Made by a program: the position numbers and the translations under genes. From Curvularia clavata (Eukaryota), in contig CP089275.1 of assembly GCA_023920165.1 (NCBI GenBank), forward strand, positions 2,666,001-2,730,000: a stretch of 64,000 nt of DNA. The letters run 5' to 3'. This document shows positions 55,484 to 62,099 of the stretch, one piece after another (the stretch's first letter is position 1; each line of letters starts with the position of its first letter). The notes beneath the pieces are model-generated. The model had not been told where the DNA came from and ran no database searches. It worked only from the letters and a program-made list of their open reading frames with translations.

Positions 55484-56632
55484 TCATGTTCCTGATCCTT
55501 TTCCTTTTGCTTTGGTCTTTTTGCCGTTCCCATTGGTAGGAGCAGTAGTACTAATAGCTCTTTTGCGCCGAGTGCTTGCGGTGGAAGAAGGGGTGTCCTC
55601 TCTTAAGCCTCCGGCCACATCTTCAGGCAAGAACTTGCCACTGCCCGTAGCTTCTCGAACTAGTGATGTGTAGAGTTGATGAACAGCAAGCTGAGCTGCA
55701 CTCAAATCCTGTGACGAGGATCCTTGGTCTGAAAATGAAGTATCTGGGAGAGTGTCTGGCGCGACAATCTTGAGGCGCTCTGTTCCGAGCTGAAAGCTGC
55801 TGCAGGAAATACGGGATATCTGAACTTTGGGATGGGATAGGTCGAGGGCGAGATGGTGGTTCAGATATCTGGATAAAGCTGCTGTGAAAGGTTTGCTGTT
55901 TATCTCATTCAGCAGCTTGCCCCGCTGAACAAAGCCAGCAACGTCCTCGGTCGCTATGGTGATATCAATGTGCTTGAGCAGACTCGTGGCAGTTGGGAAC
56001 GTGAGCTGCACATGCAGCTGTTTGATGGCGTCCTGGATGGACAGGGTAGAGCTGGGCGCGGTGAGATGAGTAAAGAAGATGTCCAGAGAGGATGTGATGA
56101 AGGGCGAGGGAAGCCTCAATGGGGCTACATGGGCGTCGAAGGTGGTTCGCAGGTAGTTTAGGAAGATGTCGCGTATGGGCGCGGGCATCTTCACAAGCAA
56201 AAGGGGGAGGGAAGTGAAGCCATTGGGCGAGGAGGTGACATCTGGATCGCGCAGAAGAAGTGCGTTGTACATGTTTTTCTCATACTCGAGGCTCACGTGG
56301 ATGCCGCGGGCTCGGTCTGGGGTCACGTCTGGAGCAACTCGGGGCGCACCAGGGTCCTCGGACTGCAGGCGCCGGTCAATCCAGGCATCTTCGTCGCCAA
56401 GCACCTCCCAGCGGCATTCTTCGAGCGGGCCCAGCTTTGCCGTCTCATTCGCGCTGGCGAAGTCGACCTGCACGCCACGGACATTGTCGCCTTTGAGCTG
56501 CTCTTTGAGGCGCTTGGCATGGGCGCGCACAGATTGGTCAGCGAGCAGGGGAGTGTCGCCATGGTGCAGTGAGGACAGACGGTACAGGTTGTAGGTCCTG
56601 TTCAGCAGTGGGTAGGGAGGCACGTAGGCCAT
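55484..56632 (-). CDS. FTA1: Kinetochore Sim4-complex subunit Fta1 / CENP-L-like
   Basis: Intronless 382-aa ORF with YPLLNRTYNLYRLSSLH, FTSLPLLLVKMP...FLNYL.TTFD and FTAALSRYL.HHLALDL.HP.V.ISRISC. Family assignment is from recalled resemblance. Confidence 0.72.
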   Translation of the reverse strand: MAYVPPYPLLNRTYNLYRLSSLHHGDTPLLADQSVRAHAKRLKEQLKGDNVRGVQVDFASANETAKLGPLEECRWEVLGDEDAWIDRRLQSEDPGAPRVAPDVTPDRARGIHVSLEYEKNMYNALLLRDPDVTSSPNGFTSLPLLLVKMPAPIRDIFLNYLRTTFDAHVAPLRLPSPFITSSLDIFFTHLTAPSSTLSIQDAIKQLHVQLTFPTATSLLKHIDITIATEDVAGFVQRGKLLNEINSKPFTAALSRYLNHHLALDLSHPKVQISRISCSSFQLGTERLKIVAPDTLPDTSFSDQGSSSQDLSAAQLAVHQLYTSLVREATGSGKFLPEDVAGGLREDTPSSTASTRRKRAISTTAPTNGNGKKTKAKGKGSGT

Positions 56633-56757
56633 GATGTCAGCTGTTCTCAGCCGGGGTCACGGCGCGTTGGTGGTAGTGACTATGGTGATGGCGAGAGGAG
56701 GCCGTCCACAGCAGGCGCGTCGACACGGGCAGGCAGACAGGTGAGCATGGCGCGGGG

Positions 56758-56788
56758 CGCTGGTGCTGGTGCTGGTGCTGGTGCTGGC
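56758..56788 (+). repeat. (GCTGGT)n hexamer tandem repeat, about 5 copies, upstream of FTA1
   Basis: gctggtgctggtgctggtgctggtgctggc read directly. A 9-mer repeat (gtgtggctg) also lies near 56845-56870. Confidence 0.85.
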
Positions 56789-56971
56789 GTTAGTTGATGT
56801 TGATGGATGATGATTGATATTAGTGTTGGCGTTGTGAGGTTGAGGTGTGGCTGGTGTGGCTGGTGTGACTGGCGTGGCGGCGGCGAGTGCGGCGGCGGGC
56901 ACTGCGGCGGTGGCCCGTGCCCTCCGCCCGCCCAGCAGACCAACAAGGAGCCCCGCTGTTTGGTGCCAGCC

Positions 56972-56991
56972 AGAAACTTCTGTGTGGTTCC
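56972..56991 (+). promoter_or_regulatory. Putative heat-shock element upstream of Hsp110
   Basis: aGAAa cTTCt gtgtg gTTCc gives 3 of 4 correctly phased nGAAn/nTTCn units, about 230 nt upstream of the ATG. Confidence 0.55.
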
Positions 56992-57218
56992 TTGGACGCA
57001 AGCCCGCCATTCTTGTTAGGTCATACCAGCGCATTATTCAAATTTTGAATTTTTGCGGCGGGTGCCTGTCTATCCCTCGCTACTACTCCACGACACTTGT
57101 GTTCCTGCCCGATAAATCCTCGCCTCAGCATATACCCCATATACCCTTTTTACCCCTCCACACACTCACATACACACTTTCTCGCCGCCCGCATATACCC
57201 CGCCATCACACTTCAACC

Positions 57219-59713
57219 ATGTCTGTAGTAGGAGTCGACTTGGGTACGCTCAACAGCGTTATTGCTGTTGCGCGCAACCGTGGCGTCGACGTTGTAAGTA
57301 ACCCCCAAACGCCTCCCTTCATGGCACAGCCTGACTGACTGACTGTCTAGATCGCAAATGAGGTTTCTAACCGCGCGACCCCGTGAGTAACGCCCAAAAC
57401 ATCGCCACCCACAAGACAAACACATAAACAGCCGGCTGACCATGGTCCAGATCACTAGTAGGCTTCGGCCCCAAGAGCAGATACATTGGAGAGATGGCCA
57501 AAAACCAGGAAATCTCCAACCTCAAAAACACCGTCTCGTCGTTTGTCCGCCTCGCCGGCCGCAGCCTCCAAGATCCAGATGTTCAGGTCGAGCAGGAGTT
57601 TGTCTCGGCTCAGCTCGTCGACATTGACGGCCAGGTGGGCGCCGAGGTCAGCTACCTGGGCAAGAAGGAGCGCTTCACCGCTACCCAGATCACCGCCATG
57701 CACCTCACAAAAATGCGGGCCACAGCCTCTGCTGAGCTCAAGCTGCCCGTAAACGACATCGTTCTCAGCTGCCCTGTGTGGTACACCGACGCCCAGCGCC
57801 GCGCCATCCTCGACGCCGCAGAGATTGCTGGTCTCAAGTGCCTGAGGCTCATCAACGACAACACTGCAGTCGCCCTCGGCTGGGGCATCCCAAAGCTCGA
57901 CTTGCCTGGCCCAGAGGAGAAGCCGCGGAGAGTCGTCTTTGTCAACATTGGCCACAGCAACTATACGGCCACTGTTGTCGAATTCAGGAAAGGCGAACTG
58001 GCCGTCAAGTCGAGCGCCTGGGACCGACACTTTGGTGGCCGCTACATCGACAAGGCCCTTGTCGAGCACTTTGCAAAGGAGTTCAAGGAAAAGTATAAGA
58101 TTGATGTCATGGAGAACGGCAAGGCACGCTTCCGCCTGGCTGCCGGTGTTGAGAAGCTCAAAAAGGTCCTTTCTGCCAACAACATGGCGCCCATCAACGT
58201 CGAGTCCATCATGAACGATGTCGATGTGCGCGGTATGCTCAAGCGCGAGGAGCTCGAGGAGCTGATCAAGCCGCTCCTCGACCGTGCTACTGTTCCCCTT
58301 GAGCAGGCCCTGGCCGAGGCTAAGCTCACTGTAGATGACATCGACACCATCGAGATGGTCGGTGGATGCACTCGTGTCCCCGCCCTCAAGGCCAGGATCC
58401 AGGACTTCTTCGGCAAGCCCCTGTCCTTCACCCTCAACCAGGACGAGGCTGTCGCTCGTGGATGCGCCTTCTCCTGCGCCATCCTCTCACCAGTCTTCCG
58501 TGTTCGTGACTTTGCCGTTCACGACATGGTCAACTACCCCATCGAGTTCACATGGGAGAAGTCCGAGGACATTCCCGATGAGGACACAAGCCTGACCGTC
58601 TTCAACAAGGGCAACGTCATGCCATCGACCAAGATCCTGACCTTCTACCGCAAGCATCCCTTCGACTTGGAGGCTAGGTACGCTAAGCCTGAGCAACTGC
58701 CCGGCAAGATGAACCCCTGGATCGGCCGTTTCTCAGTCAAGGGCGTCAAGGAAGATCCCAAGGGCGACTTTATGATTTGCAAGCTCAAGGCACGCCTCAA
58801 CGTGCACGGTGTGCTCAACGTCGAGTCTGGATACTATGTTGAGGAGACCGAGGTCGAGGAACCCATTCCCGAGGAGAAGAAAGAGGGTGATGTACGTTTT
58901 CCCGAATTTCCTAATGATTCAATGTCTAGCGAGCAAACCCCGGCAGAGCCTGCCGCGAAACGATACAAGCTCAGCGACAATCCTGTAGCAGCGCGTCCTG
59001 GTGTTTCTGCGTCCGAGAAGAAGAATGAGCTAACAAACAATGCGCAGGCCATGGACGTAGACAAGGATGCTCCCCCAGAGCCACCCAAGATGCGCAAGGT
59101 CAAGAAGCAGCTCCGCAAGGGAGACCTGCCCCTCTCCGCCGGCACTGCTTCCCTCGACGACGTCTCCAAGCAGGCGGCGGCAGAGCGCGAGAATGCCATG
59201 ATCATGGAGGACAAGCTCGTCGCCGACACTGAGAACGAGAAGAACAACCTTGAGAGCTTCATTTACGAGCTCAAGGACAAGATCCTTGACGTCTACGCCG
59301 AGTTTGCCAGCGACGACGAGAAGACCAGGCTCAACGCGAAGCTTGAGACCATTGAGGTAAGTTCAGCAATCAGTTGGCAAAATCCTGAACAGTACTGACA
59401 CTTATGACAGGAATGGCTGTATGATGAGGGTGATGATGCCACCAAGGCACAATACGTCTCCAAGAAGGAGGATATTCGTGCCATTGCTGGCCCCATCATT
59501 CAGCGCTACAACGACAAGATCGAGGGCGAGCGACAAGCCGCTCTGGAGAAGCAACAAAAGGAGCACGCCGCCAAACAGGCTGAGCTTGAGCGCGCGAAGC
59601 GGGAAGCCGAGGCCAAGAAGCAGGCTGAGGCGCCACCTGCCGAAGAGACAAAGGATACCGAGATGGCTGACGCCGAGGGCCAAAAGGCTGATGGCGCCGA
59701 GGAGGCTTCTTAG
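57219..59713 (+). CDS. SSE1: Hsp110-family chaperone / Hsp70 nucleotide-exchange factor (Hsp88/Sse1); introns 57294-57349, 57383-57450, 58892-59047 (in frame, possibly retained) and 59357-59410
   Basis: MSVVGVDLG...ARNRGVDV|IANEVSNRATP|SLVGFGPK, TLNQDEAVARGCAFSCAILSPVFRVRDF, DKLVADTENEKNNLESFIY and |EWLYDEGDDATKAQY. Confidence 0.96.
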
Positions 59714-60169
59714 ATGGGAAGATGTACGCAGGCGTATGGGCAAATGAAAAAAAAAGCATTTGGACGGCGTAGTATATACAGGCTACGTTTTGGGGTGAAG
59801 GAAAGTACTGTCCGACTTTGTTCCTTTTCTTTTCTGCGATGAGATCATGGTAATGCGATGCTTATGATAGACCAGTCCATAGATGAACGATCATGAGATT
59901 TGATGTCTTTGATTTTGTAGATTTGCTTGTTATGGATCGTGTTGGATATTTTGCAGAAAAGCCGTGTTGTTGTTAGGCGTGCCATTCTCCACATGCCAGG
60001 AAAGCTGAGCAAAGCATAGGCCGACAAGAAATAGCAAGCGAATAACAGGGCTTGTCGTGCCATTACCCAGCTACTAAGCCTTTGTTTCTAGTTTGAATAA
60101 TCTATACCCACTAATCATCTTTCTGCCTCTCTGTTTTTTTTTCACTGTGGACCAGTAAGAGTAAGGGTG

Positions 60170-62099
60170 ATGTTAGAAGAGCTCATTACCTCAGCGCACC
60201 AACTACCACCGCCATTGTCCACACCCAAACCGACATCGCATGCGGCAAGTAGTGGGCGATCACGAAGAAAATCGCGAGGTGGGTGTGTGACTTGCAAGTC
60301 AGTCCTATCCCTATCTCGGTTCCTTTTCATCTGTCTTGGTGCTTTTGTTTGTTTGTCGGATTTTACATCTTGTTTATAAAATGAGTTGTACATACAACGC
60401 ACGATAACCTAACAAAGAAGCAGAGCACGAAAAGTAAAATGTGACGAGACAAAACCAGTCTGTGTTCGTTGTCTTACCACGGGCCGGACCTGCGAAGGCT
60501 ACGGTGTCCTAGGTGGAGGAGGAAACACGTATCTTGAACGATACGGCGGTCATTCCCAATCAGCCCAATCTCGCGGGTGCATTCCACTGGCAGAGCCGCT
60601 GGCAAGATCTTTCTTACCAGATGAACTGCGGTACCTCCGGCTCTACAAGCAGCATGCATCATGGACATCAGCAGGCTGGTTCGCATCTTTGCTTCCCCGG
60701 CTGCTTCGTTGTCGTCTGATCGAGTTCTAGGTTCGGTTACCCCTTTTGGCACGCGACGGTCCTCCCCGCCCTCGTCTCCGAACCTGCCATCCTGCATGCC
60801 GTGGTGGCGTTGAGTGCCGCGCATCCGTGGAATTTTCTCCCTGAAAAGAGCCCCGACGCAAGAGACAGATTCATAGTAAAACAGTATAACAAGGCAATTT
60901 GCGCGCTGCAGCCGCTGTCGTCGAGGCACGGAGACCGCCAGGATGTAGCCGTGGTGCTAGTCACGTGCATGTTGTTTACTTTTTTAGAGTACTCGAGGGG
61001 AAAATATGAGATCGCAGAAACGCATCTGAAGAATGGGATACGATTGCTTGGGGAGGGTGCGCCTGGTATTGAAAAAAGCATTGTGAGGAGCTTTGTGGCA
61101 CTTGTAACACAGAGGAGTCTATTTGGAACACAACCTGACGACGAGGATGACGACGTCAACAACATCGACTTTGTTCTTCTTCTCAACCCGAGGAAAGATG
61201 TGCTTCTTCCGGGAGCCGTCTTTGCTGGCCCAGAGGACGCAAAATACGCTCTGGATATCATACTACGCCGCATCGCACGCGCCGAGCAACTCGTGCAGCG
61301 GACCCGTACTCATAGACTCTTAAACCCGCAGCAATACCATTTCAACCTGGAAAAAGAGCAGGCAGAACTCAGTGACCTCCTATCCTCCTGGCACTCGACC
61401 TACCTGCGCACTCTTCCCAAAATTAGGACCTCACCCACTACCCCAGACTCCCTAGCCTTTGGCACGCATTCCGCCGCACCCATATCACGGGAAACACTCT
61501 CTTACACTCTCCTCCTCCTTCATCACACCCTCTCGCTCATCAAAGTTTCTGCTTTGCTTTCCCCCTCCGAATCTATTTACCGCACTCAAACGCCCTTATT
61601 CCTTCACATCGTCTCCCACGCCGCGGCCCTATACGCTGCGTACAGGCTCGCAGCCGCTGTACCGAATAATGTTAATCTGCACGAGTCCGTTAGTGAGTCG
61701 GGCTTTATTGCACCGCTGTACTACACGGGGCTGAAGTGTCGTGTTGGGCACGTACGACGGTATGCGTGCAAGTATCTAAGGGAGATTCCACACAAGGAGG
61801 GCGTGTGGGATAGTGTTTTGGCGGCGAATGTGGTCAAGAGTGTTATGTGCTTAGAGGAAGAACAAGACAAAGGAGGAGAAGAATGTAAACTTGGAGGAGA
61901 TGAAACGATAGATTTAAGCAAAGTTCCTGTTTTGAAAAAGGGAGAAGAGAAACCAAGTGCATTGGATGTGGGGAAGTGGTTTCGCAGTGTGAGAGTCGAG
62001 ATGCTGCGGGAGGAGGGCACTCGGGCGAGGGTCGTATGTGAGCGGGTACGTAGCGATGGAGGCATTGAGCTTGTCGAGTTCATGGTGGATAACAAGTAG
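60170..62099 (+). CDS. Zn(II)2Cys6 fungal transcription factor; introns 60298-60423 and 60679-60730
   Basis: SRGGCVTCK|ARKVKCDETKPVCVRCLTTGRTCEGY, then GW|FGYPFW...EPAILHAVVALSAAH and HKEGVWDS. Confidence 0.9.

Follow-up and report, generated by a model that had tools for sequence, protein, structure and literature searches.

The Hsp110 (Sse1/Hsp88) gene of Curvularia clavata, in a 64,000-nucleotide stretch of assembly GCA_023920165.1 (contig CP089275.1, positions 2,666,001 to 2,730,000 of the forward strand; hereafter the window, numbered from its first letter), contains a third intron that is in frame, free of stop codons and encodes a basic motif resembling the nuclear localisation signal (NLS) of c-Myc. 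Open frame, absence of stops and motif are conserved across the Pleosporales and other Dothideomycetes, and RNA that specifically retains this intron exists. We propose that intron 3 is an exitron, an internal intron that is also translated, and we lean, by a modest margin over even odds, towards a classical NLS that would most likely direct a sub-pool of Hsp110 to the nucleus. The conservation of frame, stop absence and motif makes it highly probable that the retained isoform is translated and under selection. The motif and its context argue, less strongly, for nuclear import, and we therefore treat the NLS as putative, with the balance tilting slightly in its favour.

The gene encodes an Sse1-type Hsp110, with nucleotide- and substrate-binding domains of the Hsp70 type. 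The protein matches the Pfam HSP70 family (E 4.9e-134) and the Sse1 structure 2qxl (E 9e-163, versus about 1e-66 to 1e-69 for Hsp70 chains), and its top database matches are hsp88/sse1 proteins of Pleosporales (Bipolaris, Exserohilum, Pyrenophora) at 85-95% identity. Translation from the start codon at 57219 gives 719 amino acids in the spliced isoform and 771 in the isoform that retains intron 3, the intron itself being read as VRFPEFPNDSMSSEQTPAEPAAKRYKLSDNPVAARPGVSASEKKNELTNNAQ. The open reading frame (ORF) 56844..57338 ends inside intron 1, and the stop-to-stop ORF 57440..59398 passes unbroken through intron 3. The coordinates of the gene and of the features within it are collected in Table 1.

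Contigs from four public runs (X1, X2, X12 and X13) were placed on positions 57150-59800 of the window. The joint 58891->59048, which skips 156 nucleotides with GT..AG borders, is found in all four, the same runs splice the other three introns, and one X13 contig of 2360 nucleotides (record 14) joins all five exons. Intron 3 is thus a genuine spliceosomal intron by its GT...AG borders, its branch-point consensus and its removal observed in RNA, and the only departure of its splice signals from the canonical form is a C at donor position +4. The original prediction had described this intron from the letters alone, with donor GTACGT, branch point GCTAAC, acceptor CAG, an open frame and the motif PAAKRYKL; the RNA joints agree with it, and every coordinate that it gave is correct.

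Retention of intron 3 was detected in two of the four runs (X1 and X2), at a level on the order of 4-10%. In X2, a contig of 184 nucleotides (58870-59053, 0 mismatches) contains the whole intron and both of its borders, at a depth of 182 versus 1714 for the spliced contig; in X1, the depth in the intron 3 bin is 1.98 versus 46. The spliced form therefore dominates, with about 90% or more by contig depth. The X2 bins over introns 1, 2 and 4 are fully explained by their exon portions (427.4 = 32/89 x 1188.8; 1059.2 = 55/89 x 1713.9), and thus the intron 3 signal does not come from genomic DNA or bulk pre-mRNA. That retention would be detectable had been predicted, and it is found to be particular to intron 3. 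X12 and X13 have no cover of intron 3 at a spliced depth of 10-12, which is too shallow to show a form at 5-10%. Retained mRNAs that contain stops are normally removed by nonsense-mediated decay; because intron 3 is in frame and stop-free, its retained mRNA should escape this pathway, and such escape could by itself render the retention of intron 3 easier to see than that of other introns. A second, related organism is also represented in run X1, by contigs that are 90-95% alike (57263, 57289-57451); its introns 1 and 2 have other lengths (skips of 64 and 71, with a few replaced letters).

Retained-intron transcripts were also sought among database proteins, as full-length ORFs from short contigs of non-NCBI origin, and none was found among those inspected. 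Eleven candidates (P0244, P0230, P0204, P0206, P0057, P0164, P0235, P0242, P0245, P0233 and P0029) proved to be genomic ORF read-throughs. All five transcript-like loci from metagenomes splice intron 3, and neither source adds RNA support for the retained form.

An open intron in a single genome is of little weight. Stop-free frames arise in 9.9% of 20,000 composition-preserving shuffles of intron 3, and with about one third of introns having a length divisible by three (3n), an open 3n intron is expected with a chance of about 3% per intron. This is unremarkable in a 64-kb fungal window, and the case therefore rests on comparison. A crude splice-signal scan of the window lists 72 candidate introns with a median of 93 nucleotides, although the scan is unspecific and too noisy to define a typical length, and hence to confirm the original prediction that intron 3 is about three times as long as most. 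Within the Hsp110 gene the other introns measure 57, 68 and 54 nucleotides, and both of the 3n ones (introns 1 and 4) hold in-frame stops, which extends to this gene the pattern that the original prediction described for 3n introns of other genes. Six metagenome ORFs (P0057, P0204, P0206, P0230, P0242 and P0245) start at the ATG, read across introns 1 and 2 and re-enter the frame in exon 3. Short introns do get read through by chance in this way, which makes an open frame alone weak evidence. At this level, intron 3 could be an ordinary intron that is accidentally 3n, stop-free and basic, with retention as splicing noise, given a per-intron chance of about 3% in one genome and the many introns that a 64-kb window holds.

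For an unbiased comparison we turn to metagenome contigs, which were scanned by the exon patterns KKQ[QL]RKGD and ESGYYVEE only. The 37 loci obtained comprise five spliced transcripts (L026, L030, L032, L033 and L037) and 32 genomic loci, and all 32 of the latter have an intron at exactly the intron 3 site. In the 27 genomic loci that are Dothideomycete-like (exons closest to Pleosporales or Mytilinidiales proteins, as checked for part of the 27), intron 3 is without exception 3n and stop-free, as it is in the window and as the original prediction had anticipated for orthologous introns. These 27 loci represent 18 distinct introns of 132-216 nucleotides and nine different lengths. The pattern K[KR]x[KR] is encoded in 17 of the 18 (L021 being the one without it), the donor GTACGT is present in 17 of the 18 and in the window, and the acceptor CAG is found in 28 of 28 open locus introns and in the window. 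The other five genomic loci are less closely related, with 63-81% identity to anything in the comparison set. One of them, L024, has an AT-rich intron of 75 nucleotides that lacks the motif and is apparently open by chance; in the other four, L034 (113 nucleotides), L036 (54), L031 (154) and L035 (167), the intron is closed or not 3n.

Intron 4 of the same gene served as a control. It was found in 26 of the 32 genomic loci, no anchors being found in the other six, and was measured in 24 Dothideomycete-like loci plus the window. Its length is 50, 51, 52, 54, 55, 60 or 86 nucleotides, covering all three classes modulo three, its donors are GTAAGN, GTATGN, GTGAGT or GTAGGA, and it is both 3n and stop-free in one of the 25 sequences. 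For intron 3, in contrast, all 21 gap blocks in a codon-blind MAFFT alignment of the DNA of 19 distinct long introns are multiples of three, and stops in frames 0, 1 and 2 of 20 distinct introns number 0, 37 and 108, respectively. An accidental origin of the open frame, with which the distant and motif-free L024 would agree, is contradicted by 27 open loci out of 27 in nine lengths, by the gap blocks, by 0 stops against 37 and 108, by the control intron, and by the recurrence of the motif in 119 of 135 distinct inserts described below. We consider chance an extremely unlikely explanation.

Three protein database searches yielded 250 further proteins, and 135 distinct full intron-encoded inserts of 40-73 residues were available for comparison. 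The pattern K[KR]x[KR] occurs in 119 of these, KR only in 15, and neither in one, in agreement with the expectation that orthologous introns keep a K-K/R-x-K/R motif. Thirteen different residues occupy the x position, the residues before the motif are mostly PAA or RAA, and PAA-KR-x-K is present in 50 of the 119 motif-bearing inserts. Most inserts begin with VR (110/135) and have L[TIM] within their last 12 residues (132/135); in 5 of 135, a further KR lies 10-12 residues upstream of the motif, spaced as in a canonical bipartite signal. The carriers include >25 genera of Pleosporales and, beyond this order, Mytilinidion (Mytilinidiales), Diplodia (Botryosphaeriales), Oleoguttula (Mycosphaerellales) and Trypethelium (Trypetheliales). 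The insert is also present in Cenococcum-like sequences from metagenomes, and the annotated Cenococcum protein is the spliced counterpart. Records labelled 'variant 2' occur beside a spliced form or name in Plenodomus lindquistii and Paraphaeosphaeria minitans, and the former species also has a spliced model in the database. A Lecanoromycete-like group (P0214, P0219, P0222, P0223, P0236, P0240, P0249, P0251 and others), of which Sticta canariensis is the only named member, shows the pattern EE-x-V-ASAPRSRFK followed, after about nine residues, by G-C-K-R-T-F.

In a 16-sequence alignment, the only invariant residues of the insert are V-R, K-R, L-T and Q. The donor GTACGT accounts for V-R, the branch point CTAAC for L-T and the acceptor CAG for Q; of 19 distinct introns, 16 have the branch point as CTA ACA in one shared codon phase, and the other three have the close variants CTG AC. 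or CTA ATA. This leaves K-R as the sole invariant residues outside the splice signals, accompanied by a near-invariant E four positions before and a near-invariant K two positions after. At the DNA level the motif is written GCC GCG AAA, then CG[A/G/T] or AGA, then NNN, then AAG or AAA. Its Arg is kept by way of CGA, CGG, CGT and AGA, the last of which differs at the first position, and the codon of x is hypervariable. Divergence at codon positions 1/2/3 is 0.24/0.21/0.35 in the motif. Outside it, in the core set, divergence is even across the three positions (0.41/0.35/0.36), and the median ratio of non-synonymous to synonymous divergence (dN/dS) over all non-signal columns of this set is 0.76. 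This has the signature of a disordered spacer with one short linear motif, in which selection would act on the frame, on the absence of stops and on the motif.

Selection on the open frame could also be explained by a retained form that has no function of its own, if the intron is kept open so that splicing failure, whether occasional or brought on by heat, in a very highly expressed chaperone gene yields a harmless full-length protein and not a truncated one. The conserved GCCGCGAAACG block would then act at the nucleotide level, for instance by enhancing splicing or binding a regulator. The near neutrality of the remaining peptide would fit, as would the first Lys codon of the motif, which is AAA in 19 of 19 sequences, the largely fixed GCC GCG, a second conserved block (CTGTACTTGCGCGTCC) with invariant third positions in the core group, and the KRPK-coding DNA that L031 and L035 keep although their introns are not 3n. 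However, introns 1, 2 and 4 are unprotected, so that the protein would still be disrupted if splicing failed in general, and the benefit is doubtful in any case because nonsense-mediated decay would clear stop-containing mRNA. The motif also behaves in the opposite way to a nucleotide-level element: its third positions vary most, its Arg switches between CGN and AGA, and its x codon is free. RNAalifold found no conserved RNA structure in intron 3 (18 sequences, 0 conserved pairs), and a comparison of the intron and its surroundings with the RNA families of Rfam, snoRNAs and the like among them, gave no match at E<=1. We judge this explanation improbable and favour a translated exitron.

The second block, CTGTACTTGCGCGTCC(TGCTTCTGCG), occupies alignment columns ~165-195 (window ~58985-59012) and encodes V-L-A-R-P-A-S-A in core Pleosporales. 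Its third codon positions look invariant and its first and second positions vary, which resembles constraint at the nucleotide level.

Public gene models of Hsp110 come in three lengths, of about 720, 750 and 770 amino acids, and intron 3 accounts for the longest and the shortest. The intermediate class consists of 19 models, of ~748-757 amino acids, to which the intron contributes just its first 30-37 encoded residues, with the KRxK motif among them (P0004-P0008, P0031, P0032, P0034, P0036, P0042, P0046, P0064, P0087, P0096, P0100, P0101, P0110, P0205 and P0237; P0031, with 667 amino acids, and P0032 have the same partial insert as the models of ~748-757 amino acids). In these models an internal GT just after the motif is joined to the normal acceptor (window 58973-59000). 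The internal donor is a conserved GTACTT in core Pleosporales loci and GTAGCA in the window, and its joint was not seen in the four runs. These models may be predictor artefacts or may represent a third isoform in some species.

The alignment to Sse1 stops at residue 508 and resumes at 510, leaving query residues 475-537, that is the insert and its acidic flanks, unmatched. An AlphaFold2 model built from a 47-sequence alignment, of moderate quality (mean predicted local distance difference test score, pLDDT, of 65.6), shows residues 472-544 as coil with pLDDT<50, between strands at 455-471 and 547-558. The insert is thus predicted to sit in a disordered acidic loop of variable length in the beta-sandwich substrate-binding domain, aligned to the acidic loop of Sse1. 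A ligand of importin-alpha needs a disordered segment, and the intron-encoded K-R-x-K has one in the model. A second basic stretch, KMRKVKKQLRK, is encoded constitutively in exon 4 just downstream of the insert and is nearly invariant in homologues. From its Met onwards it is modelled as a beta-strand (residues 547-558 of P0001), and being mostly strand, it probably offers no accessible import signal.

The window core KRYK fits the classical monopartite consensus K-K/R-x-K/R, as quoted in PMC4831876. The c-Myc signal, which the original prediction quoted as PAAKRVKLD, is given in the same form in PMC2817886; the window sequence PAAKRYKLSD matches it in 8 of 9 residues if one inserted Ser is allowed, a resemblance that implies no homology. 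The exitron might instead be translated and selected for a K-R-x-K that is some other linear motif, for instance a phospho-switch for a basophilic kinase or flanked by CK2 sites, a partner docking site, or a nucleolar or chromatin contact, any of which would tune the activity of Hsp110 and not its location. All of the evidence for translation fits such roles equally well, Ser/Thr and acidic residues often follow the motif (KRYKLSD, KRRKPSAD, KRHKPSTE), and the conserved ASAPRSRFK...GCKRTF of the Lecanoromycete-like group is not a textbook NLS. Against these roles, the core corresponds precisely to K-[KR]-x-[KR], its x position is free and it lies in a disordered region, which together define a classical monopartite NLS; some lineages add an upstream KR at bipartite spacing; and Fes1, another Hsp70 exchange factor, is directed to the nucleus by such a motif (PMC4831876). 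A non-import role seems to us unlikely, though less so than a retained form without function.

Under the NLS hypothesis, most transcripts would be spliced at intron 3 and yield the ordinary cytosolic Hsp110 of 719 amino acids, a nucleotide-exchange factor of Hsp70, and a minority would keep the intron and yield the isoform of 771 amino acids, with 52 additional residues in the disordered acidic loop. The insert would be a nearly sequence-free spacer around [P/R]-A-A-K-R-x-K/R, and its K-R-x-K/R motif, in a c-Myc-like PAAKRxKL context, would place part of the Hsp110 pool in the nucleus by way of an importin-alpha-type NLS. Retention might rise with heat or stress, and the conserved donor GTACGT, which departs from the consensus, is one conceivable route; we take this donor to be sub-optimal in strength, and it would then fit a deliberately weak site. 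Such a stress-regulated switch is speculative, and we regard it as doubtful. A bolder form of the idea, in which we place still less confidence, is that the gene carries an ancient, class-wide dual-coding intron (Dothideomycetes, possibly older) that works as a splicing thermometer. When splicing is impaired by heat or proteotoxic stress, the intron with the GTACGT donor would fail before the others of the gene, and the mRNA left unspliced, still fully translatable, would supply the nucleus with NLS-bearing Hsp110. The condition of the splicing machinery would in this way be linked directly to the capacity of the nucleus for Hsp70 exchange and disaggregation.

Several observations weigh against nuclear targeting by a translated intron 3, or limit the evidence for it. 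Retention is low and is visible in two of the four runs; all runs are available as contigs, which are unreliable for ratios, so that its level is an order of magnitude only; and X1 and X2 are RNA libraries by our guess, their cDNA content being shown by the spliced joints. The database proteins with an insert were ascertained by their openness, the unbiased sample being the 32 genomic loci only, and the related species among the compared loci are not independent of one another. The Pleosporales-like lineage of L021 (identical to P0169) has no K[KR]x[KR], and the Lecanoromycete-like group keeps the open intron but with G-x-K-R-[TSK]-[FL] and no K-R-x-K. L031 (1383-1536) and L035 (1370-1536) encode TKRPK(T/A)EE...LT.EPQ in the frame of the downstream exon, yet neither intron is 3n; an open frame seems to have been disrupted in each by a different indel, and the two loci would fit either decay or constraint at the nucleotide level. 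The fixed AAA and the largely fixed GCC GCG of the motif likewise make some constraint on DNA or RNA possible. The peptide outside the motif is nearly neutral, so that any function rests on 4-8 residues, and yeast Sse1 works without such an insert.

In mammalian Hsp105, the 43-44 residues that distinguish the alpha from the beta isoform fall in the loop that separates the beta-sheet domain from the helical domain, which is also where the insert lies. According to PMC4771732, Hsp105alpha is cytoplasmic, and alternative splicing yields Hsp105beta, which is 43 residues shorter, nuclear and strictly heat-inducible; references to both forms also appear in PMC4598581. Hsp105 thus resembles the window gene in being one gene of the Hsp110 family with two splice isoforms, which in mammals are cytoplasmic and nuclear. 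In Hsp105, however, the nuclear form is the shorter one and arises by skipping coding sequence, whereas in the window gene the longer, retained form is predicted to be nuclear and gains a motif. The alternative segments are unrelated in sequence, and the localisation shown in mammals is a prediction here.

A second comparison is offered by Fes1, for which PMC4831876 describes a cytosolic form, Fes1S, and a minor nuclear form, Fes1L, with a conserved K[K/R]X[K/R] NLS, and calls the splicing heat-shock regulated. As in the window gene, a fungal nucleotide-exchange factor of Hsp70 has a minor splice isoform with this pattern. Fes1 is an armadillo-type exchange factor and not an Hsp110, and its NLS lies in a C-terminal alternative exon, the short form being made by intronic polyadenylation, whereas the window gene has an internal, in-frame retained intron. 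Exitrons, in turn, are 3n-long, translated internal introns rich in disorder and motifs (Marquez et al. 2015, as described in PMC5602073). Intron 3 is like them in being internal, 3n and stop-free, in having both RNA forms, and in its predicted disorder and short linear motif. Typical exitrons, as portrayed there, have very weak splice sites and a predominant retained form, whereas the spliced form predominates for intron 3, an atypical usage, and they are described mainly in plants and animals. Intron retention in heat-shock genes of Trichophyton (PMC6830096) was considered as a precedent and set aside, given that an hsp88-like gene figures there only as an expression target and the retention events described add stops.

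Cryptic peroxisomal targeting by alternative splicing in fungi provides a looser parallel: there a C-terminal peptide on metabolic enzymes gives dual localisation to a housekeeping protein. Those cases share a short signal exposed by splicing, although the motif in the window is internal, NLS-like and on a chaperone. A literature search, with subscription journals outside its reach, found no description of a splice-isoform switch or exitron in a fungal Hsp110 among the papers listed. The original prediction knew of no description for Hsp110 at all; within that search this holds for the fungal protein, and mammalian Hsp105alpha/beta (PMC4771732) is a precedent within the family. By its sequence features, the window gene would join a known pattern, the Hsp70 exchange factor with a splice-specific NLS, here taking the shape of an exitron and with unusually deep conservation.

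Hsp110 is the main nucleotide-exchange and disaggregation co-chaperone of Hsp70 in the fungal cytosol. If the NLS hypothesis is right, one retained intron would give a second, nuclear pool of Hsp110 to the fungi that carry it, many of them plant-associated or lichen-forming Dothideomycetes, and this would be the third independent partition of an Hsp70 exchange factor between cytosol and nucleus by splicing, after Hsp105beta and Fes1L, which would suggest a general need. A translated intron of this kind is recognisable from sequence alone, by conservation of frame and stop absence and by neutral sequence around one short motif.

Table 1. Features of the Hsp110 gene, in window coordinates
Feature	Position	Strand	Details
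Hsp110 / Sse1 / Hsp88 gene	57219..59713	+	ATG to TAG, five exons
Exons of the Hsp110 gene	57219-57293, 57351-57382, 57451-58891, 59048-59356, 59411-59713	+	from RNA joints
Intron 1	57294..57350	+	57 nucleotides, 3n, in-frame TGA; joint in 4/4 runs
Intron 2	57383..57450	+	68 nucleotides, not 3n; joint in 4/4 runs
Intron 3 (proposed exitron)	58892..59047	+	156 nucleotides, phase 0, in frame, stop-free, 52 residues; spliced in 4/4 runs
5' splice site GTACGT	58892..58897	+	directly after AAA GAG GGT GAT (KEGD); Val-Arg if retained
NLS-like motif PAAKRYKL	58949..58972	+	core K-R-Y-K at 58958-58969
Branch point GCTAAC	59029..59034	+	(E)-L-T if retained; its TAA always out of frame, as CTA|AC
3' splice site CAG	59045..59047	+	Gln if retained; then GCC ATG GAC GTA GAC AAG (AMDVDK)
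Constitutive basic stretch KMRKVKKQLRK	59087..59119	+	exon 4, just downstream of the insert; nearly invariant in homologues
Intron 4 (control intron)	59357..59410	+	54 nucleotides, 3n, 2 in-frame stops; joint in 4/4 runs

The surroundings of the gene contain a few further features. The sequence GAAACTTC at 56973-56980, ~240 bp upstream of the Hsp110 ATG, is a two-unit inverted repeat resembling a heat-shock element (nGAAnnTTCn); it was spotted by eye as the sole such match, with no systematic scan made. Between the Hsp110 gene and a divergent upstream ORF (55484-56656, minus strand) lies a microsatellite of the hexamer GCTGGT (ggtgctggtgctggtgctggtgctgg, 56755-56790). Downstream of the gene, on the plus strand at 60250-60480, a cysteine pattern of the Zn2Cys6 type (GGCVTCK ... 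KVKCDETKPVCVRC) is divided over ORFs 60101-60379 and 60413-60730, which suggests an intron within the zinc-cluster coding region.

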